A DNA stretch of 64,000 nucleotides from Escherichia coli (GTDB taxonomy: Bacteria; Pseudomonadota; Gammaproteobacteria; Enterobacterales; Enterobacteriaceae): the NCBI RefSeq assembly GCF_044324785.1, contig NZ_CP172127.1; one strand, given 5' to 3'. Every line of letters begins with the position of its first letter. Position 1 is the stretch's first letter. Shown here in pieces: positions 3,796 to 64,000 of the stretch. The notes under the pieces are model-generated. The model had not been told where the DNA came from. It did not search any database and saw nothing but the letters and a program-made list of their open reading frames with translations. A program made the position numbers and the translations under genes.

Positions 3796-3799
3796 TGCT

Positions 3800-31489: not shown

Positions 31490-31577
31490 GGTGAGGTGTC
31501 CGAGTGGCTGAAGGAGCACGCCTGGAAAGTGTGTATACGGCAACGTATCGGGGGTTCGAATCCCCCCCTCACCGCCA
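31490..31577 (+). tRNA. serW: tRNA-Ser (anticodon GGA)
   Basis: 88-nt sequence GGTGAGGTGTCCGAGTGGCTGAAGGAGCACGCCTGGAAAGTG...GGTTCGAATCCCCCCCTCACCGCCA with a long variable arm and an encoded CCA; adjacent to infA as serW is in K-12. Confidence 0.95.
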
Positions 31578-31583
31578 GATTAT

Positions 31584-31620: not shown

Positions 31621-31726
31621 ATCCTTCCGGACAGTATGCCATCGGGTATGCCATCTGAAACCGGTTTATATGCCCCGCGATCATATCTTATCGGACAATT
31701 TCCGATCTTTGAGCATACTGGCAAAG

Positions 31727-44209: not shown

Positions 44210-45339
44210 GTTACCCGCTCTTCAATCTCATGCAATTGATTATGCAATATCGCATTTTCATCCTTTTGCCCGGCTAATGAGTGGGTAAGCGTCTCAACTT
44301 CTTGCTGTAATGCGGAGCTCCTGGCCTGGAAAAACTCAAGTTCCTTCAGAACCCGATCTTTAAGAGAGAATAGGTACTCTTCAGCTGACAGCGTGGTGAT
44401 CCTATGATGGGCGGCGGCGATAAATTCATCATAAAAATCATCACTCTTTGCATCCAGGGCAACAACAAACTCTTTCACTTGCTGATAAAACGGGTGAAAT
44501 GCCGGACCAGAAATCGTGTTTAAATGCCACTCAAGGAACACGACAACATAGTTTTTATAATCTCTGAGACGGTGTTCCATCATCCCCTGCTGACAGATAA
44601 ACGCTTTAAGCGCCACCAATGCTTCAACAGCACAGCGGTGCGACTCTGCTCGCGTGGCGGATAGGGATTCACTACGGTTGATGGTATGAGAAATTAACGT
44701 TTCATTTAAGACCGAAATTCTGTTCGCCATGAGCATAAATGCGCAGACGAAGAAAAGATCGTTGGTCGTCCTGATTTCCTGAAAGCGAAGCTGATGACTA
44801 GTAATAAATTGACGCCTGAGAAGCTTGTCCCATGGCCACCAGACAAAGGTGCGGAAAAAGTCAGAGGGAATATCCTGGGATGAAAAAAACTTGAGATCAG
44901 GTAACAGCTCCTGGCGCACTGACCACGGCATCGGAGCATAAACCTGCAAGGCGGGATCAAAAGACTGGCTGCGACAGATAACGACATCCGCTTGTATATC
45001 GCTAGCACGTGCGTACATGCGCTCCAACATCATGTTATCGACATAATCGTCGTCATCAAGAAAAATAACGTACTCACCGGTAGCAGCATCCAACCCGATG
45101 TTTCTTGAGCCTCCCCCACCAAGATTTGTCGTGTTGTTAATGACTCTAATTCGTGAATCAGTTTCAGCCAGCGCCGAGACAATCTCTAAGGTATTATCGT
45201 CAGAACAATCGTTGACAATAATGATTTCAATATCATTTAATGTTTGCGACAAAACAGTGCTCAATGTGTCGGAAATATATCCCGCCGCATTGTGCACAGG
45301 GATAATAACGGAAACAGCTATACTCTCTTTTTCAGACAT
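44179..45339 (-). CDS. Family-2 glycosyltransferase; C-terminus replaced by IS903-derived codons
   Basis: N-terminal GT-A fold (VIIPVHNAAGYISDTLSTVLSQTLNDIEIIIVNDCSDDNT ... FLDDDD). The last 9 codons and the stop lie inside the IS903 right inverted repeat (IS boundary 44209). Confidence 0.7.
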   Translation of the reverse strand: MSEKESIAVSVIIPVHNAAGYISDTLSTVLSQTLNDIEIIIVNDCSDDNTLEIVSALAETDSRIRVINNTTNLGGGGSRNIGLDAATGEYVIFLDDDDYVDNMMLERMYARASDIQADVVICRSQSFDPALQVYAPMPWSVRQELLPDLKFFSSQDIPSDFFRTFVWWPWDKLLRRQFITSHQLRFQEIRTTNDLFFVCAFMLMANRISVLNETLISHTINRSESLSATRAESHRCAVEALVALKAFICQQGMMEHRLRDYKNYVVVFLEWHLNTISGPAFHPFYQQVKEFVVALDAKSDDFYDEFIAAAHHRITTLSAEEYLFSLKDRVLKELEFFQARSSALQQEVETLTHSLAGQKDENAILHNQLHEIEERVTALLNKSNFC

Positions 45340-45460
45340 GCAATCACCTTGACGCTTAGCTTATAAACGTAATTATATTTATTTATGGGTAGCGTTTAAT
45401 TTGTAGGTTGCCAGTTTATTAAGGATGGGTAAGATGAAAGCGACTGAGCTTCATCAAAAA

Positions 45461-46606
45461 TTACTCTTCAACAACATCACGATATGTTTTTAATGTTTTA
45501 TTAATGATCATCACACTCGAGAATTTATCTTGAATGCGTTTTCTGCCATTGATACCCATTGCGACGCGCGTTTCTGGGTTATCCAACAGGAAACCGAGTT
45601 TCTCCGCTAATTCCTCGACAGATTTACTTTTTACAATCAACCCATTATAGTTATTGATAATTAAGCTATCACAGCCACCAACATCATAAGCGATACAAGC
45701 GCGCCCGACAGAGGAAGCTTCCAGCAAGATACGCGGTACGCCTTCGGCGTAGACCGACGGCAAAGCAACGATATTTGATTCTTCAATTAAATCAAATACA
45801 TTAGAGCAATGACCGAGCCAGTTAATCACGCCTTCGCTTTGCCACTTCTGTATCGTCGCCAGCGGAATTGCGTCTTTATCATTCTCAACTAAAATACCGG
45901 CAACATTCAGCGTAAAGTGAATATTTTTATTACTCAGTATTTTTTTGGCTTCAATCAGGTCACCCAGTCCTTTACTCCACAGCATACGGCTGGCAAAAAG
46001 GACGACCGGAACATCACGCTGCTGCTCCAGAGAGTATTTGTAAATCTCTGGATTAATACCCGCGCCATCAATAACAATAGTCTGTTTGTAATCGATACCA
46101 ACCAGATCGGCAAGTTTAGCTCTGTCTTTATCATGTTCGAACATAAACAAACTGCATTTGTTACTGGCGATATACTTATATGCCATAACAGTAAAACTTC
46201 GCAGCAGCTTAAGACAGGCAGACTCTGCGGAAAATACTCGGCCCAAACCGACAAAACTCAGAATAACAGGACGATGGGTACTTTTAGCCAGAAAACCGCC
46301 GATCAAACAGGGCTTGATGGTAATGCAGTGCAACAAATCTGGATTGATGTTTTGAATAATTTTCCGAGCCTTAGAAAAGGCCCGAAAGAAAATCAAAACG
46401 TTGAATGATTGGGCGACAAGTGGAATGTTATGGCAAACAAAACCTAATGTCCTGAATTTTTCCGCTATTTTATCATCGACAAAATGGCTAATAATGTGAA
46501 TCTCATAACCGGCATCTCGGGCGGCAATTGCACGATCGGTCCAATGCAAATCAAAATACCAATCCGAATTTATGAAATAACACAGTTTTTTCATTGCTAT
46601 GTCCAC
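45461..46606 (-). CDS. wbbO: GT4-family glycosyltransferase, WbbO-like (galactosyltransferase of D-galactan I pathway)
   Basis: 381 aa; GT-B C-terminal signature EGVPRILLEASSVGRACIAYDVGG; position matches the last gene of the Klebsiella wzm-wzt-wbbM-glf-wbbN-wbbO order. Confidence 0.75.
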   Translation of the reverse strand: MDIAMKKLCYFINSDWYFDLHWTDRAIAARDAGYEIHIISHFVDDKIAEKFRTLGFVCHNIPLVAQSFNVLIFFRAFSKARKIIQNINPDLLHCITIKPCLIGGFLAKSTHRPVILSFVGLGRVFSAESACLKLLRSFTVMAYKYIASNKCSLFMFEHDKDRAKLADLVGIDYKQTIVIDGAGINPEIYKYSLEQQRDVPVVLFASRMLWSKGLGDLIEAKKILSNKNIHFTLNVAGILVENDKDAIPLATIQKWQSEGVINWLGHCSNVFDLIEESNIVALPSVYAEGVPRILLEASSVGRACIAYDVGGCDSLIINNYNGLIVKSKSVEELAEKLGFLLDNPETRVAMGINGRKRIQDKFSSVMIINKTLKTYRDVVEE

Positions 46607-48666
<2,060 letters not shown>

Positions 48667-50559
48667 TTAGCCAAGAATCGAACGGCGAACTTTATAATAA
48701 TATTTGATGAGCTTATTTCTTCTTGGCGAACCGACAGGAGCATATTTGTTAACATATGGCATTAAAGCTCTTTTAATCTTTGTCTGCAGTAACACGGTTT
48801 GCTGCAGTTCAGTATGTTGGTTAGGTACTACCGTGGCCACAGGTAACTGGCGATAGTAGATTTCTTTCTCCCATGGCGTACTTAAAACATTCTCAAGAAA
48901 ATCATCATAGAAATCGACTTTCTCAGTATTCCATGGTTTGTTTTCACCCGCATAGTGAATCATTTTTGGATTTCTTCTGGCTTGCAAAAAGCGCATATAG
49001 GTTGAAAACTTGAGATTCGGGAAGAAATCATCGGTATTACCATTACCATGGTACACGTTCCATTCTAATGGTAAGAATTTGACTCGGCCAAAGAAGACTT
49101 TGTTCATGATATCCTGATCTAAGAACCAATACTTTTTGGCTTTCAATGCTGACATCAATTGAGCAAAGGTATTCTCTGTAACCATTTGTTCGACATTAAA
49201 AACAATAATCCCGGCCTGAAAATATTCGTCAGGATTAGTCATTCCTAATGTCTTTTTCAGGTATTGCTCTGCAGGCATAATGCCATCATCTGATTCTGAC
49301 ATGGTACCAAACTTCACAAACCCTTCCATGACGATGTCTTTAACAGCGGCAACCAGGTTAGTGCCGATCTCGACATCCAGAAGTGTCGCCAAATCAGCCT
49401 TCACCACGGTGTCAGAATCGATAAACACAACTTTTTTATACTCGCGGAAAAGTTGCGGGATGAACAAGCGCGCATAGGTCGACGCACTAAAATGTGCACG
49501 GGTATGAACATCACTCATCTCAGTGAATGAATTCACATCAAAAAAGCGCAATGATATGTTGTTATGACCAGCAACTAGCTTGATAAGGCGTTGTTTATTT
49601 AAATGACTGACCTTATTTTCCAGAACAACGATATCATAGTTTCTGCTCGCATCAGAATGGAGAACAATTGAATTGATTAATGCCCCGCCACTTAATGCAT
49701 AGTTATTATCAAAACTAATAACAACCGGTACGCTTTCGTCAAAAACGGGCTTTAATTTACCATTAAATGTTTCAGCAGTAACAAACGTGCGCTGTAGTTC
49801 TTTTATTTTTAGCTGTTTATCTTGTTGACATTTGATGATATAGATATTGAATAAACGCTCAGCAATGTGTCCTATAACTCGTTTTTCTTGAGCGTTGTAG
49901 TTATTCATCGAAATCCGATCTTCAAGATTAGACAAAATAGCAAAAAGCCATTCAGAATAATCCAGGAACATGTCTTTGCGCATAACAAACATGTTCGTAT
50001 AATAACCATCAGTTGCATTATTGAATTGTTGAATCGCAGCTTTATATTGTGGATACAGCTCTTCAACGACATCCAGGGCAGACTGATAGTCTTTAATGTG
50101 TAAAAACTCACCTTTTGCATAATGATCAAGGTTATTCTTACTTCCTGCCGATGTTACCGACCATTTTTTGGGTAACAGCAGATCATATCCATCGACGCAG
50201 GTGCTTATGGATTCATCACTTAATCCAAACTGGCTTTCGTATTCGGCATTGATGAGCGGGTAGTTGACTACCCCCCAGTTATCCTCAGGATGATTTTGTT
50301 GTTCTGCAAAGTTCAAGTGTCTGCGGTAATGCATGAATCCCACATAGTCAGCCAGAGATTCATTCTTCCACACCCAGTAGTGGGCCGTCAGCTCACAATA
50401 GAAGGGGTTTTTAAAGGAAATGTTGTCTCCGCTATCATCCCCTTCACAGCCAATATCATTATAAGTATTAGCCTTCCCGACATGCAGTGGTTTAATAATA
50501 GAGGCATTTAGAAAAGCACTGGGTTTGTGGTGACATGTATAAATTTTGATACTATTCAT
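48667..50559 (-). CDS. wbbM: WbbM-like bifunctional glycosyltransferase (N-terminal DUF4422-like domain + C-terminal GT8 domain)
   Basis: 630 aa; C-terminal GT8-like region (VVISFDNNYA...FIDSDTVV). Size and position match Klebsiella WbbM. Confidence 0.8.
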   Translation of the reverse strand: MNSIKIYTCHHKPSAFLNASIIKPLHVGKANTYNDIGCEGDDSGDNISFKNPFYCELTAHYWVWKNESLADYVGFMHYRRHLNFAEQQNHPEDNWGVVNYPLINAEYESQFGLSDESISTCVDGYDLLLPKKWSVTSAGSKNNLDHYAKGEFLHIKDYQSALDVVEELYPQYKAAIQQFNNATDGYYTNMFVMRKDMFLDYSEWLFAILSNLEDRISMNNYNAQEKRVIGHIAERLFNIYIIKCQQDKQLKIKELQRTFVTAETFNGKLKPVFDESVPVVISFDNNYALSGGALINSIVLHSDASRNYDIVVLENKVSHLNKQRLIKLVAGHNNISLRFFDVNSFTEMSDVHTRAHFSASTYARLFIPQLFREYKKVVFIDSDTVVKADLATLLDVEIGTNLVAAVKDIVMEGFVKFGTMSESDDGIMPAEQYLKKTLGMTNPDEYFQAGIIVFNVEQMVTENTFAQLMSALKAKKYWFLDQDIMNKVFFGRVKFLPLEWNVYHGNGNTDDFFPNLKFSTYMRFLQARRNPKMIHYAGENKPWNTEKVDFYDDFLENVLSTPWEKEIYYRQLPVATVVPNQHTELQQTVLLQTKIKRALMPYVNKYAPVGSPRRNKLIKYYYKVRRSILG

Positions 50560-50573
50560 CTTATTACCAATTA

Positions 50574-51314
50574 TTAAGCCATTGCTTGCTTGTAAAGTTC
50601 AATGATTCTCTCTGCTGAGCCAATTTCGCGGAGTTTATGGTTTTCGATCCAAACAACTCTGTCACAGATTTTTTCAACATCACTCATATTGTGGCTAACG
50701 AATAATATCGTTACACCCTTATTTTTGAAGTCTCGTATTGTTTGTATACATTTGGCCTGGAACGAAATGTCACCGACAGCAAGTACCTCATCGATAATAA
50801 GTATATCGGGTTCTACCTGGCTGATGACAGAGAATCCAAGCTTCGCAAGCATACCACTTGAGTACACGCGAATAGGTTCGTCAATGAAATCACCCAGCTC
50901 GGAGAACTCAATTATCCGATCCATCCGTTGCTGAACCTCTTTGCGGCGTAGCCCAAGCAGGGTCGCATTGAGATAAATATTTTCTCGCCCGGTTAATTCA
51001 GGGTGAAAACCGCCGCCTAGCTCAAGCATTGAGGCAACGCGTCCCTGGGTTGTAACAGTGCCTTTTGTAGGCTTAATGACGCCGGCCACCAGCCCGAGGG
51101 AGGTACTTTTCCCTGCGCCGTTACGACCAATCAGCGCTACGGCCTCGCCTTTACCCACGGTGAAGGTAATGTCTTCGATCGCAAGATATTTACGCCCTTT
51201 TAACAGCTGAAAAGCTCTTTTAGGGTGAAATACGAGATCCTTAATTCCTGAGCCAATATGGTGGTAAAGAGGATACTCTTTCGTAACGTGACTAAAGTTT
51301 ATTACTGGTTCCAT
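50574..51314 (-). CDS. wzt: O-polysaccharide ABC transporter ATP-binding protein Wzt (short form, no carbohydrate-binding extension)
   Basis: 246 aa; Walker A GRNGAGKST, signature YSSGMLAKL, Walker B ILIIDE. Confidence 0.9.
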   Translation of the reverse strand: MEPVINFSHVTKEYPLYHHIGSGIKDLVFHPKRAFQLLKGRKYLAIEDITFTVGKGEAVALIGRNGAGKSTSLGLVAGVIKPTKGTVTTQGRVASMLELGGGFHPELTGRENIYLNATLLGLRRKEVQQRMDRIIEFSELGDFIDEPIRVYSSGMLAKLGFSVISQVEPDILIIDEVLAVGDISFQAKCIQTIRDFKNKGVTILFVSHNMSDVEKICDRVVWIENHKLREIGSAERIIELYKQAMA

Positions 51315-52093
51315 TACAAAATCTCTGCAAATCGATATTTTAATTTATTAAAAATACTCAGGCCCACAATTGTCAGGACTAAACCTGTAATGTAAAGGAT
51401 TGAAATATATTCATAATTTAAGACGCCATCCATGAACAGCTGCCGCCAGCTGAGGATCATGCTTGCCAGAGGATTATAGGTAATAATCCAGCTAAATTTT
51501 TCAGGAATCATATCTGACGCATATAATATCGGCGTGCAATAAAACATGAGCATGATACCAAGGCTGACAAATCGCTCTAAATCCCTGAAGAACAGATTTA
51601 GCGTAGAAAATATGATTGAAATACCAAATGTAAAAATCACCTGACCAAGCGCAATAATTGGTACGCCCCAGAGCCATGAGAGCGATGGACGCATACCATA
51701 CACGAACAGGAATGCAATAATCACAGGAATTGTACACAAGAAATGTACCCCTTCCATCATGACATTACTCAATGGAATAACTGAGCGCGGAAAAACTGTT
51801 TTTTTGATTATTTGCGCATTGGCTATAAACGAAAACAAGGAATTTGTCGCCGAGCTGGCAAACCATTGCCACGGAAATAAACCGGTAATCAAGAAAAGGG
51901 TATAATTCGGGATCTGCACTCGCATAACGAGCTTAAAAATGAAATAATATATCATTGCAAAAAGCAGTGGATTCGCAATTGACCATAAGTAACCAAATAC
52001 GCTGCTTTTATAACGTACCTTTAAATCTTTGTTTGTTATAACAACAAGAAGATCAAACAAATACCCTATATTATACTTCATTTTTATACTCAT
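51314..52093 (-). CDS. wzm: O-polysaccharide ABC transporter permease Wzm
   Basis: 259 aa; six-TM ABC-2-type permease; stop overlaps the wzt start. Confidence 0.9.
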   Translation of the reverse strand: MSIKMKYNIGYLFDLLVVITNKDLKVRYKSSVFGYLWSIANPLLFAMIYYFIFKLVMRVQIPNYTLFLITGLFPWQWFASSATNSLFSFIANAQIIKKTVFPRSVIPLSNVMMEGVHFLCTIPVIIAFLFVYGMRPSLSWLWGVPIIALGQVIFTFGISIIFSTLNLFFRDLERFVSLGIMLMFYCTPILYASDMIPEKFSWIITYNPLASMILSWRQLFMDGVLNYEYISILYITGLVLTIVGLSIFNKLKYRFAEIL

Positions 52094-53640: not shown

Positions 53641-55366
53641 GTGGTTCTTCCGCAACTTGGGTGGAAGAAAATGGATGAAACTTTCTGGTGAACAAGGATC
53701 TAAGCTGTTTTAAGTTATGGGCAACGCAATGCACTCTCTTAAGACACTTCTACAGTTACCTTGCGGATGGCGATGCAGTCGACAAATTATTAGCTCTGAC
53801 GGTATCACCCTCCATCTCCACGGAAAACGCAAAACAGCACAATGTCCTGAATGCTCTAAGCGTAGCGACTCTGTTCATAGTTCTCGTCGGCGCCGGATAC
53901 AGCATCTACCCTGCTCCGGGCAGACGCTATGGCTTGTATTTTCCGTCCGCCACTGGTACTGCCGTAACCCTGTTTGTTCACGAAAAATTTTTGCCGAGTC
54001 GCTTGCTCCCTTCGCCGGTTCACACCAGCAGTCTTCACAGGCGTTACAAAATTTACAACGTCAACTGGGATTAATAGCCGGAGGTGAGGCTGGAAAACGG
54101 GCTGCAACGGCAGTGGGTCTCCGTTGCAGTGCAGATACTCTTCTTCGCAGGGTTATCAATACCCCGGGGACGAAACAGTCAGGCGCGCCTCATGTCGGTA
54201 TTGATGAGTGGGCGTGGCATCGGGGCCACCGTTACGGTAAGTTAATCGTCAATCTTGATACTCACCGTCCCCTCGTCCTGCTTCCCGGTCGTGATCAGCG
54301 TACGCTGGCGACCTGGTTCAGAAAATATCCGGAAATACAGGTTGTCTCGCGTGATCGCAGTGGAGTCTATGCAACAGCAGCACGTGAAGGTGCACCTCAG
54401 GCCAGACAGGTGGCCGATCGATGGCACCTGCTAAAAAATATTGGCGATGCGCTTGAACGAATGATGTACAGACATATACCTCTGATACGTCTTGTTGCCA
54501 GTGAGTTGTCACTAAAGAAATCACCTGAGCCAGAACTGTCTGTGCCTGCAGTATCGCTCCGTCGTCCGGAACGCCTTAAACAGCAAACCCGCAAAAAACG
54601 GCATCAGCGTTGGACAGAGGTTATGGCCCTGCATAACAAGGGATGTAGTTTCAGGGAAATATCCCGTATTACAGGCCTGTCGCGTGTGACAGTCAGTCGC
54701 TGGGTGCGTTCAGGAACATTCCCTGAAATGTCAACCCGACCTCCAAAGCGAGGGCTTCTGGACCCATGGAGGGAGTGGTTAAAAGAGCAACGAGAAAGCG
54801 GTAATTATAACGCCAGCCGGATATGGCGGGAAATGGTGGCCCGGGGGTTTACAGGCAGTGAAACCATCGTCAGGGATGCTGTTGCCAAATGGCGTAAAGG
54901 CTGGATCCCACCGGTTACTACTGCCGCCAGACTTCCTTCAGTGTCCCGGGTAAGCCGGTGGTTGATGCCCTGGAGAATAATCAGGGGGGAAGAAAATTAT
55001 GCTTCCCGATTTATTAGTCTGATGTGTGAAAAAGAACCGGAGCTGAAAATAGCGCAGCAACTGGTACTCGAGTTCTACCGTATTCTGAAAACCCAAAATA
55101 AATCACAGCTTAGCAGCTGGTTCACTCGAGTCCACGAAAGCGGCTCAGCAGAACTTCGGCGCGTGGCTGCGGGGATGGAAGCTGATGCTGCGGCTATATG
55201 TGAGGCAATCAGCAGTCGCTGGAGTAATGGTGTTGTCGAAGGTCATGTAAATCGCCTGAAGATGTTGAAACGCCAGATGTATGGTCGAGCCGGATTTGAA
55301 CTGCTCAGGCAGAGGGTCATGAGTCCACTGGCATGAAAATCTCCACCCAAGTTGCGGAAGAACCAC
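53641..55366 (+). mobile_element. ISL3-family insertion sequence nested inside the IS66-like orfA
   Basis: 25-bp perfect terminal inverted repeats GTGGTTCTTCCGCAACTTGGGTGGA at 53641-53665 and, inverted, at 55342-55366; encloses a single transposase gene. Confidence 0.75.
53717..55336 (+). CDS. ISL3-family transposase
   Basis: 539 aa; N-terminal zinc-finger-like region (CGWRC...CPEC); ISL3-like architecture. The second Met at 53729 is an alternative start. Confidence 0.8.
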   Translation: MGNAMHSLKTLLQLPCGWRCSRQIISSDGITLHLHGKRKTAQCPECSKRSDSVHSSRRRRIQHLPCSGQTLWLVFSVRHWYCRNPVCSRKIFAESLAPFAGSHQQSSQALQNLQRQLGLIAGGEAGKRAATAVGLRCSADTLLRRVINTPGTKQSGAPHVGIDEWAWHRGHRYGKLIVNLDTHRPLVLLPGRDQRTLATWFRKYPEIQVVSRDRSGVYATAAREGAPQARQVADRWHLLKNIGDALERMMYRHIPLIRLVASELSLKKSPEPELSVPAVSLRRPERLKQQTRKKRHQRWTEVMALHNKGCSFREISRITGLSRVTVSRWVRSGTFPEMSTRPPKRGLLDPWREWLKEQRESGNYNASRIWREMVARGFTGSETIVRDAVAKWRKGWIPPVTTAARLPSVSRVSRWLMPWRIIRGEENYASRFISLMCEKEPELKIAQQLVLEFYRILKTQNKSQLSSWFTRVHESGSAELRRVAAGMEADAAAICEAISSRWSNGVVEGHVNRLKMLKRQMYGRAGFELLRQRVMSPLA

Positions 55367-55467
55367 TTTTCATCCGTCGTTGACACAAGAGGGCAGTATC
55401 GCTGCTCTGGCCCGTCAACATGACGTCAACGATAATCTGCTCTTTAAATGGATAAGGCTCTAGCAAC

Positions 55468-55695
55468 GTGAAGGGCGGGCGGGTCTGTCGACCCCGAAAA
55501 AATGCATCGTCGCTTCCTACCCTGATACCCGTGCAACTTCAGGCGGAGCCTTCTCTCCCGGAATTCGAACCACTATCCTGTTCACCTCCCACTGCCTGCC
55601 ACATAAAATGTCGGGGCGGAGAAATAACGCTGACCTCTCCCTCAGTTGAGCTTATGAGCACTGTCCTGCGCGAACTGATGCGGGGGTCTGTATGA
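55468..55695 (+). pseudogene. IS66-family OrfA C-terminal fragment
   Basis: 75-aa ORF ending ...LMSTVLRELMRGSV, whose stop overlaps the orfB start in the typical IS66 arrangement. Confidence 0.5.
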
Positions 55696-56057
55696 TAAAT
55701 CTTCCCGCAGGCACAAAAATCTGGCTGGTTGCCGGTATCACCGATATGCGCAACGGCTTCAATGGTCTCGCCGCAAAGGTGCAGACAGCGTTGAAAGATG
55801 ACCCGATGTCCGGCCACGTCTTCATCTTCCGGGGCCGCAGCGGCAGTCAGGTCAAACTGCTGTGGTCCACCGGCGACGGACTGTGCCTGCTGACCAAAAG
55901 GCTGGAGCGTGGCCGCTTCGCCTGGCCGTCGACCCGCGATGGCAAAGTGTTCCTGATGCCGGCGCAGCTGGCGATGCTGATGGAAGGTATCGACTGGCGA
56001 CAGCCAAAGCGGTTACTGACGTCCCTGACATGTTGTAGCCCAGGTCTTCTTCGTTGA
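55692..56057 (+). CDS. IS66-family accessory protein TnpB (OrfB)
   Basis: MINLPAGTKIWLVAGITDMRNGFNGLAAKVQTALKDDPMSGHVFIFRGRSGSQVKLLWSTGDGLCLLTKRLERGRFAWP matches the IS66 OrfB family as I recall it. Confidence 0.8.
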   Translation: MINLPAGTKIWLVAGITDMRNGFNGLAAKVQTALKDDPMSGHVFIFRGRSGSQVKLLWSTGDGLCLLTKRLERGRFAWPSTRDGKVFLMPAQLAMLMEGIDWRQPKRLLTSLTCCSPGLLR

Positions 56058-56877
56058 TAAAGTTCACATCCAGAGGATGGATACTTCCTGTAGCCCGTAA
56101 TATCGTCGATTCAATATCCTGCACATTCATCGGGATCACCGATGCAAGAAAAGCCCATTGATCAGAATAAGGCTGGAAATTAATATCAACAAAAACGCTT
56201 CCCCCCGATGCACGCGGTCTTTTTTGCAGAGGTAACGCGATAAGATTACCAAATCCTCCTTTTGGCATAGTATCCTGATTAGGAAATAATCGGTCATAAG
56301 AACTCAATTGCAGCTGTCGGGTCCGGCTGCACGTATAGCTAATAATAGCAGTCCCCAGACGGCGAGCTTCGCGGGCCGAAACTCGTGAAGCAAAAAATAT
56401 CCAGACATGCGCTCCCTGACGTGAGCGGGATATTTCCAGCGCAGCAGGTACACTCAGCTCATCACAGGCTCGCATGAACGCGGATGCATCCTTCTGCCAT
56501 TCAGCTTTATCAAAATCAACAGCCAGAAAATAACAGGAATCATCTTCCAGCAACGGATATAACCCGGCAGTATGCGTGCCTGCCAGATGCTGGTAGATGA
56601 CAAGATCAGATACAGGGAGTAACTGACGGTGCGTACAGTCCCCGCATTTTATCCGGGGTTTACCGCATATTCTCGCCTGCCATTCGTTAGCGCAGGCAGG
56701 AGAGTACCCTGATTTGCCGCTGGTTTTACTTTCCCAACGAAGGGCCCATATATCATCACGCCCACGAAACAACCGACGAAATAATGCAACCTTCTCGTCG
56801 GTGGATAATACGGAAACGCGCTGCACAGGGCTCGGCGGTTTACGTCGCCATTCCAAGTAATGAGACCAGACGGGCAT
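56058..56877 (-). pseudogene. Primase-like protein (archaeo-eukaryotic primase / prim-pol type N-terminal domain), 3'-truncated at the IS66 boundary
   Basis: Motifs LAVDFD (DxD) and RQGAHVWIFF (H-containing motif). The reading frame continues into antisense IS66 orfB sequence (to 55852), so the native C-terminus, where a helicase domain would be expected, is missing. Confidence 0.5.
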
Positions 56878-57080
56878 TTTCTGCCCTCAATGCAGCTAAT
56901 TCATCGCTGTCAGATTTATGAACCATATTCGTTACCTGTATCCGATCCACTGAGGCACCACGGCAGAAATTCGGGTCCCCTACACTGATGACAAAGCGCC
57001 CCGCCCTCTTCTGCCTATTAACTCAAGCACCTCCCAACAACTTACAGAAACTTAATTCTAATACCTAATACAGCTGTAAT

Positions 57081-57644
57081 TCAGTTGTGTCGTGGTCGGC
57101 CCCGGTTACTTTTTTCGGGAAGCCTGCTACGGCCCAGAATAATACCGTGTTCTTTCTGATCCTGTTTAGCCAGGTAGCTGAGGGCGTAACGTAAGTCGTC
57201 TACTGCGGACTTATCACTATAGTGAATCACGTGATCGATACGCACCGGGTATTTATCTTTAGCCCGGCACAGATGAAAATAACCCTCCCCTTCCGTGATC
57301 CGCCTCCAGATATCCCCCAGTTGCCTGGATATCTGATAAGAGTTCTTGTGACGTTGCCCATCCAGATAGCCGATAAAATGAATATGAAGCCCTTTGTCTG
57401 GTGTATATTCCATAACCCAGTAATATCCTGCCAACATCGTCTGGGTTTCGCTAAGTAAACGGTATATTTCCATACACATACTGTGCTTACAGGAATGCCC
57501 GAAACTGGGCGTGTCTTTCCTGTAGGCAAAATCAATTCTGAAAGGTAACAGTTTAGAAAAACGTTGAAACAATCCCTCCATGTGTTCATTCACATCTTTC
57601 AGAATCGCGAAATTCATTTCGTAATTGGGATTGGCATTATACAT
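57081..57644 (-). CDS. Inovirus Gp2-family protein (YfjJ/YagK-like), typical of CP4-57/P4-like elements
   Basis: 187 aa; resembles the YfjJ family recalled from CP4-57. Confidence 0.65.
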   Translation of the reverse strand: MYNANPNYEMNFAILKDVNEHMEGLFQRFSKLLPFRIDFAYRKDTPSFGHSCKHSMCMEIYRLLSETQTMLAGYYWVMEYTPDKGLHIHFIGYLDGQRHKNSYQISRQLGDIWRRITEGEGYFHLCRAKDKYPVRIDHVIHYSDKSAVDDLRYALSYLAKQDQKEHGIILGRSRLPEKSNRGRPRHN

Positions 57645-58775
57645 TTTATAGTCCTTAATTTATAAAACTCACAGGAAGAGGAAATTATGTAAATACTGAG
57701 AGAACATAAACGCCGTAGCACGGCATTAATAAACGAAGTAAACCAGCAGCACAGACACCCTGATAAAACTGTTTTGTATTACCGCATCGCTGTAACGAGG
57801 TAATACTTCAGAATTCAGTGAGGCTCTCTTAAACAGAGGACCAGTAAGAATTACAATGGTAAAAACACACCTCATAGAATTGAGTTTAAGGAAGCACCAT
57901 TCACTCAACCTGACATTCACAAAAGTCAGTACCAGGTGGCCTCAGGTAACATCGCTATTAATATTATCCTGCCATTAAGTAAAAACAGAAACTCTGTGAG
58001 GAAGTCTCACCAATATTTGACCAGTAGCATAAAGAATAACGATATGAGAGATACGCCCACACCAGAGATGATTACCCCATACAAAAAGATAATATTTATT
58101 AATACCACCGCACCTCAATAGACTAATAACACACTAATAGCGTTTTGGTACACACTTAACACTAACTATGCACCAGACACATACTCAGGATTAACATTCC
58201 CAACATTTATGGTACTCTCAAAGAGTATAATTCACCACACAGGTAAACTCTCACACCAGTAGTATGGAGATAATGCTGTACACATACTTACAGAGTAAAG
58301 TGTACAGTTAGCATACAGTGGCGAGCAGACATTACAACATAAAGACATAAGATAGCATAATAAGAACATAACAAAACTCCCACTAATAATACTAATTAAC
58401 CTTAATTCTTTTTTGAACAGGAAATCAACATAGCTCCAGACCTCTTCAGGTCATACACTTTTGTATTGGATGTTCAATGTGTACTTCTGCACAAACAAAA
58501 AAATAAAACCCGCAAAATAAAATATCAGCCCCAAAAATACAGCGTGAAACACCACGTTATGGATATGTTTTCATATCACCAGAAGCATATTTCACACATA
58601 CAATACAGAAACAATTCATCATATAATCAGGGTTACTGTTCACTCCTCTCGGTTATCCGCGAGACGATAAAACATGACACTAATCACAAAAACGAGAGAT
58701 AGTATTTGCGAAATATAAACAACATAAAAATCAATGCGTTGCGATTTTTTATTTTTTCAGACATGCATGCCCCCT

Positions 58776-58811
58776 CTGCTATTGTTGCTAGCCGGCTAGC
58801 AACAATAGCAG
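58776..58811. repeat. Perfect 36-bp palindrome (18-bp arms, no spacer) just downstream of the 607-aa gene
   Basis: ctgctattgttgctagcc|ggctagcaacaatagcag read directly; preceded on the plus strand by tttttatttttt. Confidence 0.7.
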
Positions 58812-58853
58812 GGATATACAAACATCGGATGCCAAAAACACGTTCCGATAATA

Positions 58854-60677
58854 TCATCGAGGATCTGACTGGTTGTTTTTAGTATCATCACCACAAATGA
58901 TGGTTAATGCGTTGTAGATCAGTCTGCGTCTGTTCTTGTTTTCAGCATTATTTCCATACAACATCATGACGTTTTTAATATCATCAACCGGTGATATTAC
59001 ATAATCAACCAATACGCCAAGCTTCTCAATACATTGCAGTAAAGTATATTTGTGTCTGCCCGTAAATAATCCTATCAGGTTTTCTTTACTTTCACGACTG
59101 GATAATATTTTGTTCTCTGTAATTAATTCAGCCAACGTTTCACCATCGTAAACACGTTCTTTATCTATCAGAATATTTATCTTATCTAACGCCCTCTCTA
59201 CATTATCAAGAAGACCTGTAATATACGGAGGCTGAATATCTGACTTTGTACTAATATTTGCAAGCATCGAATTATACATTTTAATGACACGCATCAGAGT
59301 AAAATTATTCGCATCATATTGTATTTCATCTTCATTATACGCAGGATCCGTCACGACCCTTAAGTCCATAAATGCATCCTGATAAGCTTTTACATAATCA
59401 AGTAATTCGAACAGTGAACCATGCTTTATTTTCTCCCTGTTTAATTTGATCTCCAGCGCTATCCTGAGAACTGAAAAAGCGCCGGGAAGATACCCAGAAG
59501 GTAACTCGTATTTTGGGGATTCATCATAAAACCGAAGAGCTTTGTGGAGTTTGTTCCGCCGAATCAGATAAATAAGGACGGCCAGTAACATGTAGCACCT
59601 GGTCACATAACCACGGGCATTCTGCAACTGTTCAAAATAATTAATAATGTTTTCCAGATATACATCATCATAACTTTTCTTATCAGAAAGATTAAACACC
59701 ATATCTTTTAAAGATTCGATATATTCTTGTGATTTATCATCAAGTGACACAATATAACGAGTTAATGCTCCTTTGGGGCCACTCTCAAACTCATGAAACC
59801 GTTCAAGTAATGCTCTTGCATAAGGCGTTGTGTCAAAAATATTAAAATCATAAAGATAGCGTGCAGCGTAGCCATACAACCCATGTACCCAAAGCCCTTC
59901 TCTTATCAGCACTCTGAGATAATATGCAATACTGTCAAGTATCTTTACCTTCCGTTGCATATCAAGCAAAATACTTAATGAATAAAATGCATAATAGAAC
60001 TTGTCAATGTTGTTGAGTATTCTGTCCAGCTCACTCTTATCAAGCTTCTTCTCTCTGTAATCCTTCTTGTATTCATTCTTACAGGCCTTTATATATTGTT
60101 TCATAAGGCTCTTCCTTTTACCGTACCCTTTTCGAATAGTTCCCTGGTATTTTCCCAGCTCATACATTTTTCCGTTTTCCCGAAAATCTTCTCTGTTAAA
60201 TCCCAGTTCAGCAAGATACTCCCGGAGATAACGTTTAACGGCAGCCTCATCGCTTTCTGTACCAGAGTAATCCAGGCAGGGACAATATGATTTTTGCAAA
60301 AAATTATAGATATGATAATAAAACCCTGTTTCATTCTCCGGACGATATGTGTTATATATATCCAGCACAATAAAAACAACTCCAAAGCTTTTCAGAAAAT
60401 AGTTACGGATATATTCGGACTTTAATGTTGAATACACAGGGTAAGAATTCATCATGTAATAAAAATATTCATACCGGGAAAATATAATTCGCCGTTGTTC
60501 CAGACTATACACCCCTTCAGCATCAATAATTTGACTGAGCTCATTATAACGTTGATCCCAGAATCTTTGATGCGCTCCAAAATCAGTACTCTTCCGCTTA
60601 TCTCTCGGACTCTCTCCTTCCTTAAACAACTCAAAAACTGTACAAATATCATACAAAAGATTTGTAAACATGCGCAT
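58854..60677 (-). CDS. Hypothetical protein (607 aa), no recognisable domain; AT-rich orphan gene in a P4/CP4-57-like module
   Basis: Long uninterrupted ORF in a visibly AT-rich block; Lys/Tyr/Asn/Glu-rich; no P-loop or nuclease motif identified by eye; divergently arranged with alpA. Confidence 0.6.
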   Translation of the reverse strand: MRMFTNLLYDICTVFELFKEGESPRDKRKSTDFGAHQRFWDQRYNELSQIIDAEGVYSLEQRRIIFSRYEYFYYMMNSYPVYSTLKSEYIRNYFLKSFGVVFIVLDIYNTYRPENETGFYYHIYNFLQKSYCPCLDYSGTESDEAAVKRYLREYLAELGFNREDFRENGKMYELGKYQGTIRKGYGKRKSLMKQYIKACKNEYKKDYREKKLDKSELDRILNNIDKFYYAFYSLSILLDMQRKVKILDSIAYYLRVLIREGLWVHGLYGYAARYLYDFNIFDTTPYARALLERFHEFESGPKGALTRYIVSLDDKSQEYIESLKDMVFNLSDKKSYDDVYLENIINYFEQLQNARGYVTRCYMLLAVLIYLIRRNKLHKALRFYDESPKYELPSGYLPGAFSVLRIALEIKLNREKIKHGSLFELLDYVKAYQDAFMDLRVVTDPAYNEDEIQYDANNFTLMRVIKMYNSMLANISTKSDIQPPYITGLLDNVERALDKINILIDKERVYDGETLAELITENKILSSRESKENLIGLFTGRHKYTLLQCIEKLGVLVDYVISPVDDIKNVMMLYGNNAENKNRRRLIYNALTIICGDDTKNNQSDPR

Positions 60678-60765
60678 CTGCTCTGATCTCCGGTTGGTTT
60701 CCGTTTTATCACAGGGGACATTCTGGCCTTAACGTAGCAAATTAATGACATAGCCTTCAACTCAC

Positions 60766-61026
60766 ATGGAGAACAATATGTCAACCCAGACCGGACATTT
60801 TTATACCCCCTCACGCATCCTGCGTATGGCTGAACTTACCCGACTCCTTGGTATATCAAGATCGACCATCTACGAAAAAATGAATCCGGCATCAAAATAC
60901 TACGATGCCACCTTTCCCCGGCCTGTCCGGCTTGGGAGTTCGGCTGTAGGCTGGCGGGCATCTGCCATTGATGAGTGGTTAACTTTACATACAACACCAA
61001 CCAGATCCGTAACTAAGGATAAATAA
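60766..61026 (+). CDS. alpA: AlpA-family transcriptional regulator (prophage/island excisionase-like HTH)
   Basis: LRMAELTRLLGISRSTIYEKM...FPRPVRLGSSAVGWRASAIDEW is the AlpA signature; immediately upstream of the DUF3987-like gene. Confidence 0.7.
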   Translation: MENNMSTQTGHFYTPSRILRMAELTRLLGISRSTIYEKMNPASKYYDATFPRPVRLGSSAVGWRASAIDEWLTLHTTPTRSVTKDK

Positions 61027-61041
61027 GGAAAACTGTACGCC

Positions 61042-62607
61042 ATGACAAAATTATCCCCCCCTGAACTTGACATAACTAAACTGCCTGACAGGTGCCAGGC
61101 ATTACTTGATGAAATGCATGAAGAAACGGGAATAAGCCGTGAAATACTGCTGTCTGTTATGCTGACGGTCAAGGCTGTCTCGGTCCAGGATACGCATGAA
61201 GTTGAACTTTCTGGAGGGCAGCGTACCAGTCTTCAGATATATATGTGTCTTTCATCAGCATCAGGCAGTGGAAAAACCTCTGCCTGCGCAAAATTAATCG
61301 CCCCTGTTCATGAAACAGAAGAAGAACTACATCAGGCATATATCGACGATAAAAAAAACTATGATCGCATGATGGAAATGTGGACAACAGATAAAAAAAT
61401 CCTGGAGCGGAGATATAAAAAGGAAATGGAAAGATCCCCGGAAAATGCTGCTGCTGCACGAGCAGCGCTTGAAAAGTGTATAGCAAATAAACCCGTACCT
61501 CCCGTACAACAGGTTCTCATCGTGAATGACGCGACACCAGAAGGGATAGCTTTGAAACTCAGCCAGTCACCTTCTCTTCTGTTGCTGTCTGATGAAGGAG
61601 GAACTATTCTGGATAAGCGTTTCGAACGCAAATCGGCGCTGTACAACACATTATGGAGTGGGCAACCAGTCACCGTAGAACGGGCATCCAGACCCGGGTT
61701 CCGGGTAAAGGATTCCCGTCTCACTATGCTTATACTGACTCAACCGGTAATATTTGATAAGTTTTTTACTCTCACTGGCGACCAGATCCGGGGCAATGGC
61801 TTTCTGGCCCGGGTGCTATTTTGCGAACCCGGAGCAAATAAAATAATGACGACAGAACCGCATACTGCCACTCCTGTTGTAACGCAGCAATGTGCAACCT
61901 GTTTTCATGAGAAAAGTTTTGGCAGTCAGATCAGAGACTCTCTGAGAGCGTCCCGGGAAAGGCGTGCAAAAGGTGAGCAACGCATCCGCATGACATTATC
62001 ACACGCAGCATCCCACGATCTGGAAATCTTTCACGAAGAAAATATGAGTGCTGTCAGGCAGAACCCACGTATGACCACTTTCGAAGACATTATCGTCAGG
62101 AAAAGAGAACAGGCTGTTCGAATAGCCGCACTTCTGGAGCTGGAGAACAATCCACATGGTACAGTAATAACACGAGAAAGTATCAATAGTGCTATTTATC
62201 TCGTTGATTTTTATTTTCAGCATCTTATATCCAAACTGGAATCACTTCGGGAAATATCTCCTGCAGAAAAACTGGATAAATGGCTCAGAGAAAATATCAT
62301 CCGGGTAAAAGGATACGAATATCAAAAAAGCCATATACTACAATATGGTCCATATGCTCTCAGGAATAAATGTGTTCTTGATGAAGCACTTGATATACTT
62401 GCAGAACAGAAAAAAATCGTAATTGATTATTCAATCGGCCAAAAAATCATTTATATCGGTGACGCGATTACACCTTGTGAATTAGCAAATGAGGCAAACA
62501 TCCCGATAATGGAGCGTGGAATGTTTATAGTCTGTTGGGACCATAAGCTGAATAAGTACAGAAATGAAGAACAGACTAAAATATGGAACATAACTACAAA
62601 AAATTAA
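61042..62607 (+). CDS. DUF3987-like protein (YfjI-like), typical partner of alpA in P4/CP4-57-like elements
   Basis: 521 aa; operon position after alpA as in CP4-57 (alpA-yfjI), recalled from memory. Confidence 0.65.
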   Translation: MTKLSPPELDITKLPDRCQALLDEMHEETGISREILLSVMLTVKAVSVQDTHEVELSGGQRTSLQIYMCLSSASGSGKTSACAKLIAPVHETEEELHQAYIDDKKNYDRMMEMWTTDKKILERRYKKEMERSPENAAAARAALEKCIANKPVPPVQQVLIVNDATPEGIALKLSQSPSLLLLSDEGGTILDKRFERKSALYNTLWSGQPVTVERASRPGFRVKDSRLTMLILTQPVIFDKFFTLTGDQIRGNGFLARVLFCEPGANKIMTTEPHTATPVVTQQCATCFHEKSFGSQIRDSLRASRERRAKGEQRIRMTLSHAASHDLEIFHEENMSAVRQNPRMTTFEDIIVRKREQAVRIAALLELENNPHGTVITRESINSAIYLVDFYFQHLISKLESLREISPAEKLDKWLRENIIRVKGYEYQKSHILQYGPYALRNKCVLDEALDILAEQKKIVIDYSIGQKIIYIGDAITPCELANEANIPIMERGMFIVCWDHKLNKYRNEEQTKIWNITTKN

Positions 62608-62830
62608 AGTTCCCGTCTTTTATCATTCAGTTACCAACCTGAATATCTGAAACAATGCCAGACATCGGTTACAAACTGGCATTGTTTTTATCATTCAATT
62701 TATAAACTACAATATTACGTATTATTTTTACATTTATGTCATTGCAAATATCAGACAAACAAGCATTATAACTCAATAAGTATATTTTTCGTGATTACAG
62801 ACGACATCTGCAAATCTGTGAGATGTGATT

Positions 62831-63985
62831 TCATCGCTGGTTTTCCATAATCTGAGACATCACATAATCCGCCCATGCCTGCATCATCGGTATACGCTGA
62901 TCCAGCAGATCAGTCCGGTGATATGCCGCCTCAACCTTATTTTTCAGCGTATGGGCAAGCGCCCTTTCCGCCAAATCCCGCGAATATCCCTGTTCGCTAC
63001 ACCAGTCCCTGAATGTTGAACGAAAACCATGTGCTGTAGCCACTCGTCCGGGTATATCACTGATGGCCTTCTTTTTACGCAGAAAACTCGTCAACACCAT
63101 ATCTGAAAGGATCTGCTGCTTTCTGGGAGAAGGAAACACCAGTTCGTCATGCAGACCACGTATATTTTCCAGAACGTGAATGGCCTGTCGGGATAAAGGA
63201 ACACGATGCTGTATCCTGGCTTTCATTCTTTCTGCGGGTATCGTCCATATCCGCTTATGAAAATCAATTTCAGCCCAGCGCATTCCCCTTGCTTCGCCCG
63301 AGCGGGTTGCTGTCAGTATCACCATTAATAACAGTGCCCGGGTAACATTATAAGGTTCATCTGTATACACACTGGTCGCCACAAAAAGCGGTAACTGCCT
63401 CCAGGGCATTGCCGGCTGGTGTTCATCACGTCCTCTTGATTGCTGTGGAAGCAAATGATCAACCACATCAACAGGATTCGCCACACAAAAACCATGCGCC
63501 CAGCCCCACTGCATAACAACATGAATGCGCTGTTTAACCCGGCTTGCCGTTTCTGACAAGGTTAACCAGACTGGACGCAGTGTTTCTGCCACGTCCGCAG
63601 CCGTAATCGAATCCAGCGTTTTTGCTCCCAGTTGAGGAAACGCGTAATTCTCAAGCGTCGATAACCACTGCCTTACATGCTTTGGATTTTCCCATCCAGG
63701 AGACAGTTCTGCATGTACACGCCTGGCTGCATCGGCAAATGTTGGGATAACAACTTTTTCAGCTTCAGCCTTTTTAATCTCCAGAGGATCATCACCTGCA
63801 GCAAGTTGCTCTCGCATTATCCGGGCAGTACGTGCAGCTTCAGCAATACTGACCTCAGGATAAGTTCCCAATCCAGCATTACGCCTTTTTTGTGTCACCG
63901 GACTTACATAACGAAAAACCCATTTACCCCTCCCCTTTACTGAAGAAGGATGAAGAGTCAGTCCTGTAATTCCCCCATGGGGCAA
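62831..63985 (-). CDS. int: Tyrosine recombinase / P4-type integrase (N-terminus may extend beyond the window)
   Basis: N-terminal arm-binding region (GGITGLTLHPSSVKGRGKWVFRY), AYPEVS-like motif (GTYPEVS) and C-terminal catalytic region (HGFRSTFRDW ... AYHRTDLLDQR). The ORF-track start is a TTG and the frame is still open at position 64000. Confidence 0.85.
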   Translation of the reverse strand: MPHGGITGLTLHPSSVKGRGKWVFRYVSPVTQKRRNAGLGTYPEVSIAEAARTARIMREQLAAGDDPLEIKKAEAEKVVIPTFADAARRVHAELSPGWENPKHVRQWLSTLENYAFPQLGAKTLDSITAADVAETLRPVWLTLSETASRVKQRIHVVMQWGWAHGFCVANPVDVVDHLLPQQSRGRDEHQPAMPWRQLPLFVATSVYTDEPYNVTRALLLMVILTATRSGEARGMRWAEIDFHKRIWTIPAERMKARIQHRVPLSRQAIHVLENIRGLHDELVFPSPRKQQILSDMVLTSFLRKKKAISDIPGRVATAHGFRSTFRDWCSEQGYSRDLAERALAHTLKNKVEAAYHRTDLLDQRIPMMQAWADYVMSQIMENQR

Positions 63986-64000
63986 TGGTTTGTCATCAGG

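Follow-up and report, generated by a model that had tools for sequence, protein, structure and literature searches.

Gene layout at the integrase-proximal end of a serW island of Escherichia coli related to SRL PAI

Results

Genes at the locus

The window analysed here is a 64,000-bp stretch of the Escherichia coli contig NZ_CP172127.1, and all positions refer to it. Close to its end lie an alpA gene, a DUF3987 gene and an integrase gene. The alpA gene (60766-61026, plus strand) encodes a rox-type, excisionase-like HTH protein that matches Phage_AlpA in Pfam (6.9e-19) and the PHROG family 'excisionase and transcriptional regulator'. RefSeq starts this gene at 60778 (82 aa), with GGAG 7 nt upstream, which is as plausible as 60766. 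The DUF3987 gene (61042-62607, plus strand) is co-transcribed with alpA and encodes a P-loop NTPase of the YfjI family (Pfam DUF3987, 3e-63). Convergent with these two is the gene of a P4-family tyrosine integrase of the SRL PAI and OI-43/48 type (minus strand, from 62831 to past the window end at 64000). Its translation has the domain architecture Arm-DNA-bind_3 (7.7e-13), Phage_int_M (1.8e-24) and Phage_integrase (6.5e-20), with matches far beyond chance, and carries the catalytic motifs TRSGE, HGFR, LAH and AAYHR. The open reading frame end at 63985 merely reflects where the window stops. The full integrase has 402 aa and starts at the window-equivalent position 64039, as read in the SMS-3-5 sequence (L001, 25932-27140), from one of the genomes identical to the window over 55800-64000. 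All three genes are intact. With these corrections at the edge and at the alpA start, the Pfam matches bear out the initial annotation, which had described alpA and DUF3987-like genes and, convergent with them, a gene for an integrase with P4-type features.

Divergent from alpA lies the gene of a 607-aa all-alpha protein (58854-60677, minus strand), which the initial annotation had termed an orphan and which we call X. On the other side, the convergent DUF3987 and int genes are separated by a gap of 223 bp (62608-62830) that contains no cargo. A hairpin with a 12-bp stem (62650-62661 / 62676-62687), read from the sequence, is likely a terminator within this gap; a scan of the region for promoter and terminator consensus sequences gave counts not above those in shuffled sequence. 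Related islands carry 0-3 cargo genes, for example H-NS and Abi genes, in the convergent gap between int and the operon.

Island ends and candidate integrase sites

These genes belong to a genomic island of ~32.6 kb that is inserted at serW, between serW and clpA, and ends ~210 bp past the window end. The tRNA-Ser(GGA) gene serW was located with ARAGORN at 31490-31577 (plus strand), and its last 14 bp (31564-31577) are the attL core CCCCCTCACCGCCA at the tRNA-proximal island end. Alignment with the empty K-12 serW site placed the junction exactly after ...CACCGCCA and fixed both island junctions, so that the island begins at 31578 and, in window-equivalent numbering, stops at about 64200. The initial annotation had suggested that an att site be sought beyond the window, and an attR core CCCCCTCACCGCCA was found there at window-equivalent 64200-64213 (27301-27314 of the SMS-3-5 sequence), ~160 bp beyond the int start, a position read in the identical genomes and not in the window's own continuation. 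The 14-bp direct repeat that bounds the island is the reverse complement of the published repeat TGGCGGTGAGGGGG, which flanks OI-43/OI-48 and SRL PAI at the 3' end of serW or serX (PMC3064760). The island shows these marks of the serW/serX family, insertion at the serW 3' end and the flanking 14-bp repeat. Excision of OI-43/48 and SRL PAI occurs at 1e-3 to 1e-4 (PMC3064760), and that of SRL PAI requires int (PMC7545054). With intact int and alpA genes and both repeats present, the island in the window is predicted to be still able to excise. An Rfam scan of the region and attR gave sub-threshold matches only (MicC, 38.6 bits against a gathering score of 90).

Two copies of GTATGCCAT with a 12-bp period lie at 31634-31654 (plus strand), 57-77 bp inside attL. 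A second such pair lies at window-equivalent 64061-64081, 20-40 bp upstream of the int start and 119-139 bp from the core. These four copies, arranged as two pairs, are the only ones in the window and the SMS-3-5 sequence together (~100 kb of non-overlapping sequence). The attP of P4 likewise has a tRNA-derived core and paired arm repeats of 12-bp period, annotated at 54-77 bp and, on the int side, at 113-136 bp (that is, at ~55-77 and ~115-140 bp in the two elements). From this similar spacing we infer that the GTATGCCAT pairs are candidate arm-type integrase binding sites. The spacing, like the domain architecture of the integrase, is P4-like. At the sequence level the integrase is only 32% identical to P4 Int.

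Gene order in related islands

The integrase is 97% identical in amino acid sequence to those of the O157, ATCC 25922 and O104:H4 islands, and it falls into the same 90% cluster as a 405-aa integrase of S. flexneri. The OI-43/48 int gene is 99% nucleotide-identical to that of SRL PAI and 15 bp shorter (PMC3064760), and the 400-aa and 405-aa integrase forms seen here agree with this published difference in length. Related integrase DNA was detected in 1265 of 5426 E. coli genomes.

The gene order of the window is int, DUF3987, alpA, X and a Gp2/YfjJ-like gene, with alpA and DUF3987 pointing towards int and X pointing towards the Gp2-like gene. The same order and strands were found on S. flexneri contigs (L008-L011) and in O104:H4. 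Among 5426 complete E. coli genomes, about 245 carried the window-type block; the O157-type block was present in 1400. The published ORF order of SRL PAI corresponds, with orf2 YfjI-like, orf4 of 'no similarity', orf5 Gp2 and orf6 a frameshifted YfjJ (PMC6980539); the strand of rox in SRL PAI was deduced from the Shigella contigs and this ORF order, not from the type sequence AF326777. Among more distant X-bearing loci, int was convergent with the alpA operon in all seven where the integrase was in view, in a survey that was seeded by the contexts of X homologues and is thus biased towards X-bearing islands. The initial annotation had regarded the layout as rearranged, a view that would fall if a described island family had this arrangement as its standard. 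By gene order and strand, an integrase that faces alpA-DUF3987 is instead the normal, already known layout of one such family, the SRL-PAI-type islands.

The island resembles SRL PAI in further respects, namely an integrase 97% identical to the 405-aa one of the O104/Shigella type, the 14-bp repeat derived from the 3' ends of the serW/serX tRNA-Ser(GGA) genes and the position of the integrase at the tRNA-distal junction. It differs in its insertion at serW rather than serX, and in an O-antigen-type polysaccharide cluster and IS elements that take the place of the resistance locus and fec. Its alleles are distinct from those of the SRL/O104 type, with 77% identity for AlpA, 83% for DUF3987 and 72% for X.

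The closest islands with the opposite arrangement are OI-43/OI-48 (the tellurite resistance/adherence islands, SpLE1) of O157:H7 and serX islands such as that of ATCC 25922. They share with the window the integrase (97%), the repeat and tRNA targets, a backbone with the Gp2-like (94-97%) and TOTE primase (91%) genes, AlpA (80%) and an X-family gene divergent from alpA. In contrast, their [X, alpA, DUF3987] block is reversed into a CP4-57-like layout, in which int and X converge and alpA, yfjI and Gp2 all point away from int; yfjI and X are only 26% and 30% identical to the window genes. In addition, an IS1 remnant splits the X/alpA control region in these islands, and yfjI is split into two ORFs. 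By blastn, collinear flanks (56039-58428 and 62846-64253, 89-95% identity) enclosed an alpA that matched in reverse. The block is thus the most divergent part of a backbone otherwise 89-97% conserved, and occurs in both orientations among islands with the same integrase.

These two orientations could be taken to mean that the segment is phase-variable and flips in vivo through the adjacent integrase or another recombinase. We consider this extremely improbable. In two of the three genes, the proteins of the two orientations share only 26-30% identity, indicating old lineages rather than switch states, and near-identical copies are collinear with the window: of 167 genomes with the block at >=99% identity, ~160 match over the whole 7.1 kb at >=99%, which points to a fixed orientation. 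Only weak, chance-level inverted repeats were found at the block ends, and a site-specific invertible switch was dropped for that reason.

The initial annotation implied that a local inversion or displacement had created a variable-cargo slot, with the 607-aa gene as cargo. Opposite orientations in islands that share a 97% integrase and a 94-97% Gp2-like gene, together with a block far more divergent (X 30%, DUF3987 26%) than its flanks at 89-95% DNA identity, suggest that the interval was exchanged or inverted at some time, and CP4-57 has the unrelated yfjH at the corresponding position. The proposal is nevertheless improbable as an account of the window, where the layout is common to Shigella SRL-type contigs, O104:H4 and 245 E. 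coli genomes, the near-identical blocks are almost all collinear, convincing flanking inverted repeats are lacking and convergence is the rule in X-bearing relatives. Moreover, X is a conserved partner of the alpA operon, as set out below, and the only true cargo position in relatives, between the 3' ends of int and the operon, is the empty 223-bp gap.

CP4-57 of K-12 (intA, yfjH, alpA, yfjI, yfjJ), to which the initial annotation had likened the alpA and DUF3987 genes, likewise combines a P4-family integrase with AlpA, DUF3987 and YfjJ-type genes and follows the same island plan, including a distal module of GTPase, DUF932, antirestriction, RadC-like and toxin-antitoxin genes. The likeness holds at the family level and is otherwise remote, with identities of 49% for AlpA, 25% for YfjI and 34% for IntA. 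CP4-57 is integrated at ssrA and its int adjoins the RNA gene, whereas the window island is at serW with int tRNA-distal; its alpA, yfjI and yfjJ are co-directional with int, whereas alpA-DUF3987 in the window is convergent with int. The gene divergent from alpA also differs, since comparison of X with YfjH by hhalign gave a probability of 0.06, indicating no homology.

AlpA and the replication genes

AlpA is 77% identical to its O104/Shigella-type homologue, which we took as Rox for comparison, and 80% to its O157 homologue. Rox, the AlpA homologue of SRL PAI, stimulates excision and is a proven excision factor (PMC2704930, PMC3014918). Across islands, the identities of Int and AlpA run in parallel (97/80, 73/68 and 34/49%), as fits a cognate factor. 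Together with its family assignment, this suggests that the alpA product is a putative recombination directionality factor of the Rox type. AlpA of CP4-57 has been reported to activate intA transcription and Rox has been reported not to.

The DUF3987 protein matches PHROG 2373 'DNA helicase' (2.4e-40), and a Walker A motif GSGKT and an SDE motif are invariant in its family alignment. Among its homologues, the SRL-type protein stands apart with 83% identity, all others being at 25-34%. PDB sequence searches with it and with AlpA returned nothing significant. Most likely, it is a putative helicase/primase-type replication protein of the excised island. The precedent for such a role is a distant one, the PICMI satellites, whose replication depends on the DUF3987 gene and for whose excision alpA is both necessary and sufficient (PMC10803314); a scan of the region for tandem repeats or iterons as a possible origin was empty.

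Two possible partners lie beyond X. One is a putative replication-initiator-like gene (57081-57644, minus strand), annotated as inovirus Gp2-type, which matches REP_ORF2-G2P and YagK_YfjJ_C only weakly (the latter with a Pfam E of 0.0026, which misses the cut-off). The initial annotation had placed a YfjJ-like gene here; its position was right and the gene is a distant YagK/YfjJ relative only. It is 94-97% identical in the O157, ATCC 25922 and O104 islands, marking conserved backbone, and is the counterpart of SRL PAI orf5 by the published ORF order (PMC6980539). The other is a truncated gene for a TOTE-type archaeo-eukaryotic primase (55852-56877, minus strand; Pfam AEP-TOTE, 5.5e-100), of which ~276 of 786 aa are left. 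The truncation, a further difference from SRL PAI, is due to IS66-family and ISL3 elements at 53717-56057, and RefSeq lists the gene as a pseudogene; the remnant shares 91-92% identity with the N-terminal part of the full-length genes in O104 and O157. Since both partners are weakly assigned and the TOTE gene is truncated, the replication module may be defective here.

In PICMI satellites of Vibrionaceae, int, alpA and the DUF3987 'prim' gene form the mandatory core that defines the class (PMC10803314), and experiments have shown alpA to trigger excision and prim to support replication. The same three genes in the window, and the P4-like integrase and att architecture, raise the question of a P4-like or PICI/PICMI-type satellite core that is induced and packaged by a helper phage. 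We regard this as very unlikely. PICMI are six-gene elements inserted beside fis and packaged by virulent phages, whereas the window element is a 32.6-kb tRNA island with no packaging genes annotated; it carries Ag43 (an adhesin), a CbtA/YeeU toxin-antitoxin pair, antirestriction, DUF932 and RadC-like genes and an O-antigen cluster. Neither the RefSeq annotation of this island in SMS-3-5 nor the ORFs of the region searched against Pfam included psu, sid, delta, capsid or packaging genes, or P4 alpha and epsilon. P4 itself has an AlpA-family protein, Vis. It differs from the window island, which is without the alpha primase-helicase, sid, delta, psu, epsilon and cos, and vis/alpha and int of the P4 prophage are on the same strand at opposite ends.

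The X family

X had no match in Pfam, NCBIfam, PHROGs or PADLOC. Distant relatives were recovered by a full HMMER search, a word-indexed search being swamped by near-identical E. coli sequences, and X proved to be a member of a small family. In 10 of 10 distant loci, the X gene is divergent from an alpA-DUF3987 operon. This constant linkage indicates that X is core and not cargo. The divergent X/alpA region (60678-60777, ~100 bp) has a conserved stretch, TTGGTTTCC...CTGnCAG...TGGCA, and some columns remain nearly invariant in an alignment of the region across 10 loci, even though the proteins of these loci share only 25-30% identity. We infer that the ~100-bp region is a control region. X itself is only 30% identical to the O157-type protein, despite 97%-identical integrases.

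An AlphaFold model of X built with a 24-sequence alignment was all-alpha with a pLDDT of 85.9 (45 with a 4-sequence alignment). The predicted fold had no close solved relative and only weak TPR-type similarity to RRNPP regulators. One member of the family has an N-terminal HTH. The constant divergence from alpA-DUF3987 across the conserved region, the very fast evolution of X and its confident all-alpha fold, with the weak RRNPP likeness and the HTH in one member, hint that X may be a sensor or regulator of an excision-replication switch, comparable to Stl in SaPIs or RapI in ICEBs1. We offer this role as a tentative and rather doubtful suggestion.

Discussion

The gene identities, island ends, synteny and layout frequencies computed here, combined with published excision at the repeats and stimulation by Rox in close relatives, make it very probable that a ~32.6-kb island of the SRL-PAI / OI-43/48 family is inserted in the serW 3' end and that the region forms its integrase-proximal control end. 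In such an island, the P4-family integrase would recombine the 14-bp core at both ends, with the paired repeats that flank the core as the predicted targets of its arm-binding domain. As directionality factor, the AlpA/Rox-type protein would tip recombination towards excision. The DUF3987 protein could then act on the excised circle in a helicase/primase-type function, maybe with the Gp2-like protein and the TOTE primase. Compared with the CP4-57/O157-type layout, the only difference would be the reversed [X, alpA, DUF3987] block between conserved flanks.

These results assign the locus to the excisable tRNA-Ser islands, a family that is well described and in which the seemingly odd orientation is the norm. 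Because a single backbone can carry the unit of int, DUF3987-alpA and X in either of two orientations, rearrangements in these islands should not be called from gene order alone. For annotation, the analysis fixes the island ends. Of wider interest is the uncharacterised X family, found in many islands in close linkage with alpA operons. If X does regulate the switch, its family would be a new group of regulators in a class of enterobacterial islands that is very common.

The serW island and its ends

The ORF list, Pfam and PHROGs bore out the gene identities, coordinates and strands initially assigned at 60766-63985. The gene alpA lies at 60766-61026 on the plus strand (Pfam Phage_AlpA, 6.9e-19; PHROGs excisionase/regulator) and is followed by a 521-aa DUF3987 gene at 61042-62607 (+), which matches Pfam DUF3987 (3e-63) and a PHROGs DNA helicase (2.4e-40) and whose Walker motifs are conserved in the alignment. 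The integrase gene is on the minus strand and runs from 62831 up to the end of the window. Its Pfam domains (Arm-DNA-bind_3, Phage_int_M and Phage_integrase) form a P4-type architecture, PHROGs also assigns it as an integrase, and the catalytic motifs were found in its translation. The ORF is interrupted by the window end; read from genomes identical over 55800-64000, its full length is 402 aa and its start is at window-equivalent position 64039. On the other side of alpA are X, a 607-aa gene at 58854-60677 (-) lying in DNA of ~36% G+C, and a YfjJ-like gene at 57081-57644 (-), for which YagK/YfjJ and Gp2 matches were all sub-threshold.

The window derives from the E. coli chromosome: many complete genomes match 56900-64000 at 100% identity, with at least 80% of that segment covered in 199 of them. 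In strain SMS-3-5, clpA comes after the integrase and the island starts at serW. In the window, the island starts at serW tRNA-Ser(GGA), located at 31490-31577. The final 14 bp of serW, CCCCCTCACCGCCA, are repeated ~160 bp past the integrase start, and both junctions were set by alignment to the empty serW-clpA site of K-12. Since serW, the recurring repeat and the empty site define both ends, the island extends from 31578 to window-equivalent ~64200 (~32.6 kb), with the integrase at the tRNA-distal junction, reading inward. Only four copies of the motif GTATGCCAT occur in the window and the SMS-3-5 locus (~100 kb of non-overlapping sequence). They are arranged as two pairs, each with a 12-bp period; the tRNA-side pair is 57-77 bp from the core and the integrase-side pair 119-139 bp from it. 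Nearly this geometry is seen in P4 attP, whose annotated arm repeats are at 54-77 and 113-136 bp, and this makes the GTATGCCAT repeats candidate arm-type sites.

At the loci scanned (L004 from O157:H7, L013, L023, L024 and the window island), no tRNA gene adjoined int for the SRL and OI-43/48-type integrases or a 73%-identical relative. In serW and serX islands, int is at the tRNA-distal junction next to a displaced tRNA fragment. By contrast, locus L020 has an IntA-like integrase immediately after the tmRNA gene. In O104:H4 (L006), 54 bp comprising the attR core and flank are present twice (12411-12464 and 12592-12645, ~180 bp apart), with an annotated 'RtT sRNA' between the copies; the doubled segment may be a tandem att remnant.

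Elsewhere in the island, 44179-52093 (~40% G+C) holds an ABC-transporter-dependent polysaccharide cluster with glf, a DUF4422 and GT8 protein, several glycosyltransferases, and an ABC transporter ATPase and permease, which we take to resemble Klebsiella galactan O-antigen loci. At 41758-44177, a type I restriction-modification hsdM ends at 43167 beside an IS5/IS903-type transposase gene (43209-44177); since neither hsdS nor hsdR comes after hsdM, the type I system appears truncated. Outside the island, a three-gene cluster at 259-6148 (33% G+C) encodes a GT2/cellulose-synthase-like protein with a PilZ domain, a GAPES2-GGDEF cyclase and a CHASE9-EAL phosphodiesterase, and is missing at the corresponding place in SMS-3-5.

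The convergent layout is standard in the SRL PAI and OI-43/48 family

The 14-bp repeat is the published repeat of OI-43 and OI-48 in O157:H7 and of the Shigella SRL pathogenicity island (PAI), islands that undergo precise excision with frequencies of 1e-3 to 1e-4 per cell (PMC3064760). The window integrase shares 97% identity with its counterparts in O157:H7, ATCC 25922 and O104:H4. Of the 5426 complete E. coli genomes, 1265 contain related integrase DNA. The Shigella integrase is 405 aa, consistent with the O157 gene being 15 bp shorter than the SRL PAI gene (PMC3064760).

Layouts were compared with the integrase drawn pointing right, and three arrangements were seen. In type A (CP4-57, O157:H7 and ATCC 25922), int is followed by X or yfjH pointing left and then by alpA, yfjI and yfjJ/Gp2 pointing right. 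In type C (the window, O104:H4 and S. flexneri contigs), int is followed by DUF3987 and alpA pointing left, then X and Gp2 pointing right. In type B (more distant islands), zero to three cargo genes follow int, then yfjJ, DUF3987 and alpA pointing left, and X pointing right. The SRL PAI was described with a YfjI-like orf2, orf4 and orf5 of 'no similarity' and a frameshifted YfjJ as orf6 (PMC6980539); orf5 is now Gp2, and the published order agrees with type C. Among E. coli genomes, 245 have the window-type block and 1400 the O157-type block. Because the SRL PAI ORF order, O104:H4, the S. flexneri contigs and these 245 genomes share it, the convergent arrangement, read as rearranged in the initial annotation, is the standard layout of a described island family: a known element in a known layout. 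The initial annotation had set this outcome as its own refutation, and its reading of a rearranged layout marking a cargo slot is not supported.

Blastn of the window against the O157 type revealed collinear flanks (56039-58428 and 62846-64253, 89-95% identity), and the alpA segment matched reversed at 74%. Protein identities were 97% for Int, 94% for the Gp2-like protein and 91% for the TOTE primase, compared to 80% for AlpA, 30% for X and 26% for DUF3987. By sequence comparison, the 4.4-kb block of X, alpA and DUF3987 faces the other way between conserved flanks and has diverged far beyond them, which points to an old inversion or module exchange rather than a recent flip. A search for inverted repeats bordering the block gave no convincing pair. 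It is at least 99% identical in 167 genomes, ~160 of which match the whole 7.1 kb at that level, and neither the flanks nor these genomes gave any sign of an active switch. Int and AlpA identities fall in step across islands (97/80, 73/68 and 34/49%), as would be expected of a factor having to fit its integrase and att sites. In O157:H7 (L004, 5156-6791) and ATCC 25922 (L005, 5153-6790), the X/alpA control region contains an IS1 remnant, and yfjI is broken into two ORFs, one of 65 aa and one of 461/480 aa.

Predicted excision and replication

In the SRL PAI, int is required for excision (PMC7545054), which the AlpA homologue Rox stimulates without activating int transcription (PMC2704930, PMC3014918). 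As published for these close relatives, the window integrase would recombine the 14-bp core and AlpA would stimulate excision. Since the integrase with its catalytic motifs, alpA and both repeats are intact, the island should still be able to excise. DUF3987 would be dispensable for excision itself, because O157-type islands, in which yfjI is split and the control region holds an IS1 remnant, are reported to excise (PMC3064760). In PICMI satellites, excision requires alpA, which is also sufficient for it, and replication depends on the DUF3987 gene (PMC10803314); by analogy, the window DUF3987 probably helps the excised circle to replicate. Downstream, at 53717-56877, a TOTE-type archaeo-eukaryotic primase-helicase gene is cut short by a TnpB gene of the IS66 family and an ISL3 transposase, leaving ~276 matching residues of the 786 aa in O104:H4, and any replication module in the window island may therefore be impaired.

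X is a conserved partner of the alpA operon

X had been regarded as an orphan gene, in a layout read as marking a variable-cargo slot. It is 72% identical to a 611-aa O104/Shigella protein and 30% identical, over its full length, to a 605-aa O157 protein. When 1.84 billion representative proteins were searched with a profile, 59 matched, ~20 of them full length, so X has a family, albeit a small and fast-evolving one; no family match was found in Pfam, NCBIfam, PHROG or PADLOC. In 10 of 10 distant contexts, X adjoins and diverges from the AlpA-DUF3987(-YfjJ) operon, usually with ~100 bp between. Alignment of the X/alpA intergenic region (60678-60777) across 10 loci revealed a conserved stretch, TTGGTTTCC ... 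CTGnCAG ... TGGCA, partly an inverted repeat, kept where the flanking proteins share just 25-30% identity. This suggests a shared operator or promoter. The constant adjacency and the conserved intergenic region together argue that X is a core partner of the alpA operon. The variable position in relatives is instead the convergent gap between the 3' ends of integrase and operon, which holds H-NS genes, DUF4062 with Abi_alpha and Abi_C, or a small ORF. The window's own gap measures 223 bp and contains a hairpin but no gene. The CP4-57 gene at the X position, yfjH, showed no relation to X, so CP4-like islands do not all have the same family at this position. A perfect 36-bp palindrome (58776-58811), made of two 18-bp halves without a spacer, is located 43 bp beyond the X stop codon, with no T-run after it on either strand.

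The AlphaFold model of X, from a 24-sequence alignment, is all-alpha (pLDDT 85.9, pTM 0.85), and Foldseek against PDB and BFVD returned nothing at E < 0.001. One member of the family carries an additional HTH at its N-terminus. X is possibly a regulator or sensor, and a role in defence or another accessory function is equally possible.
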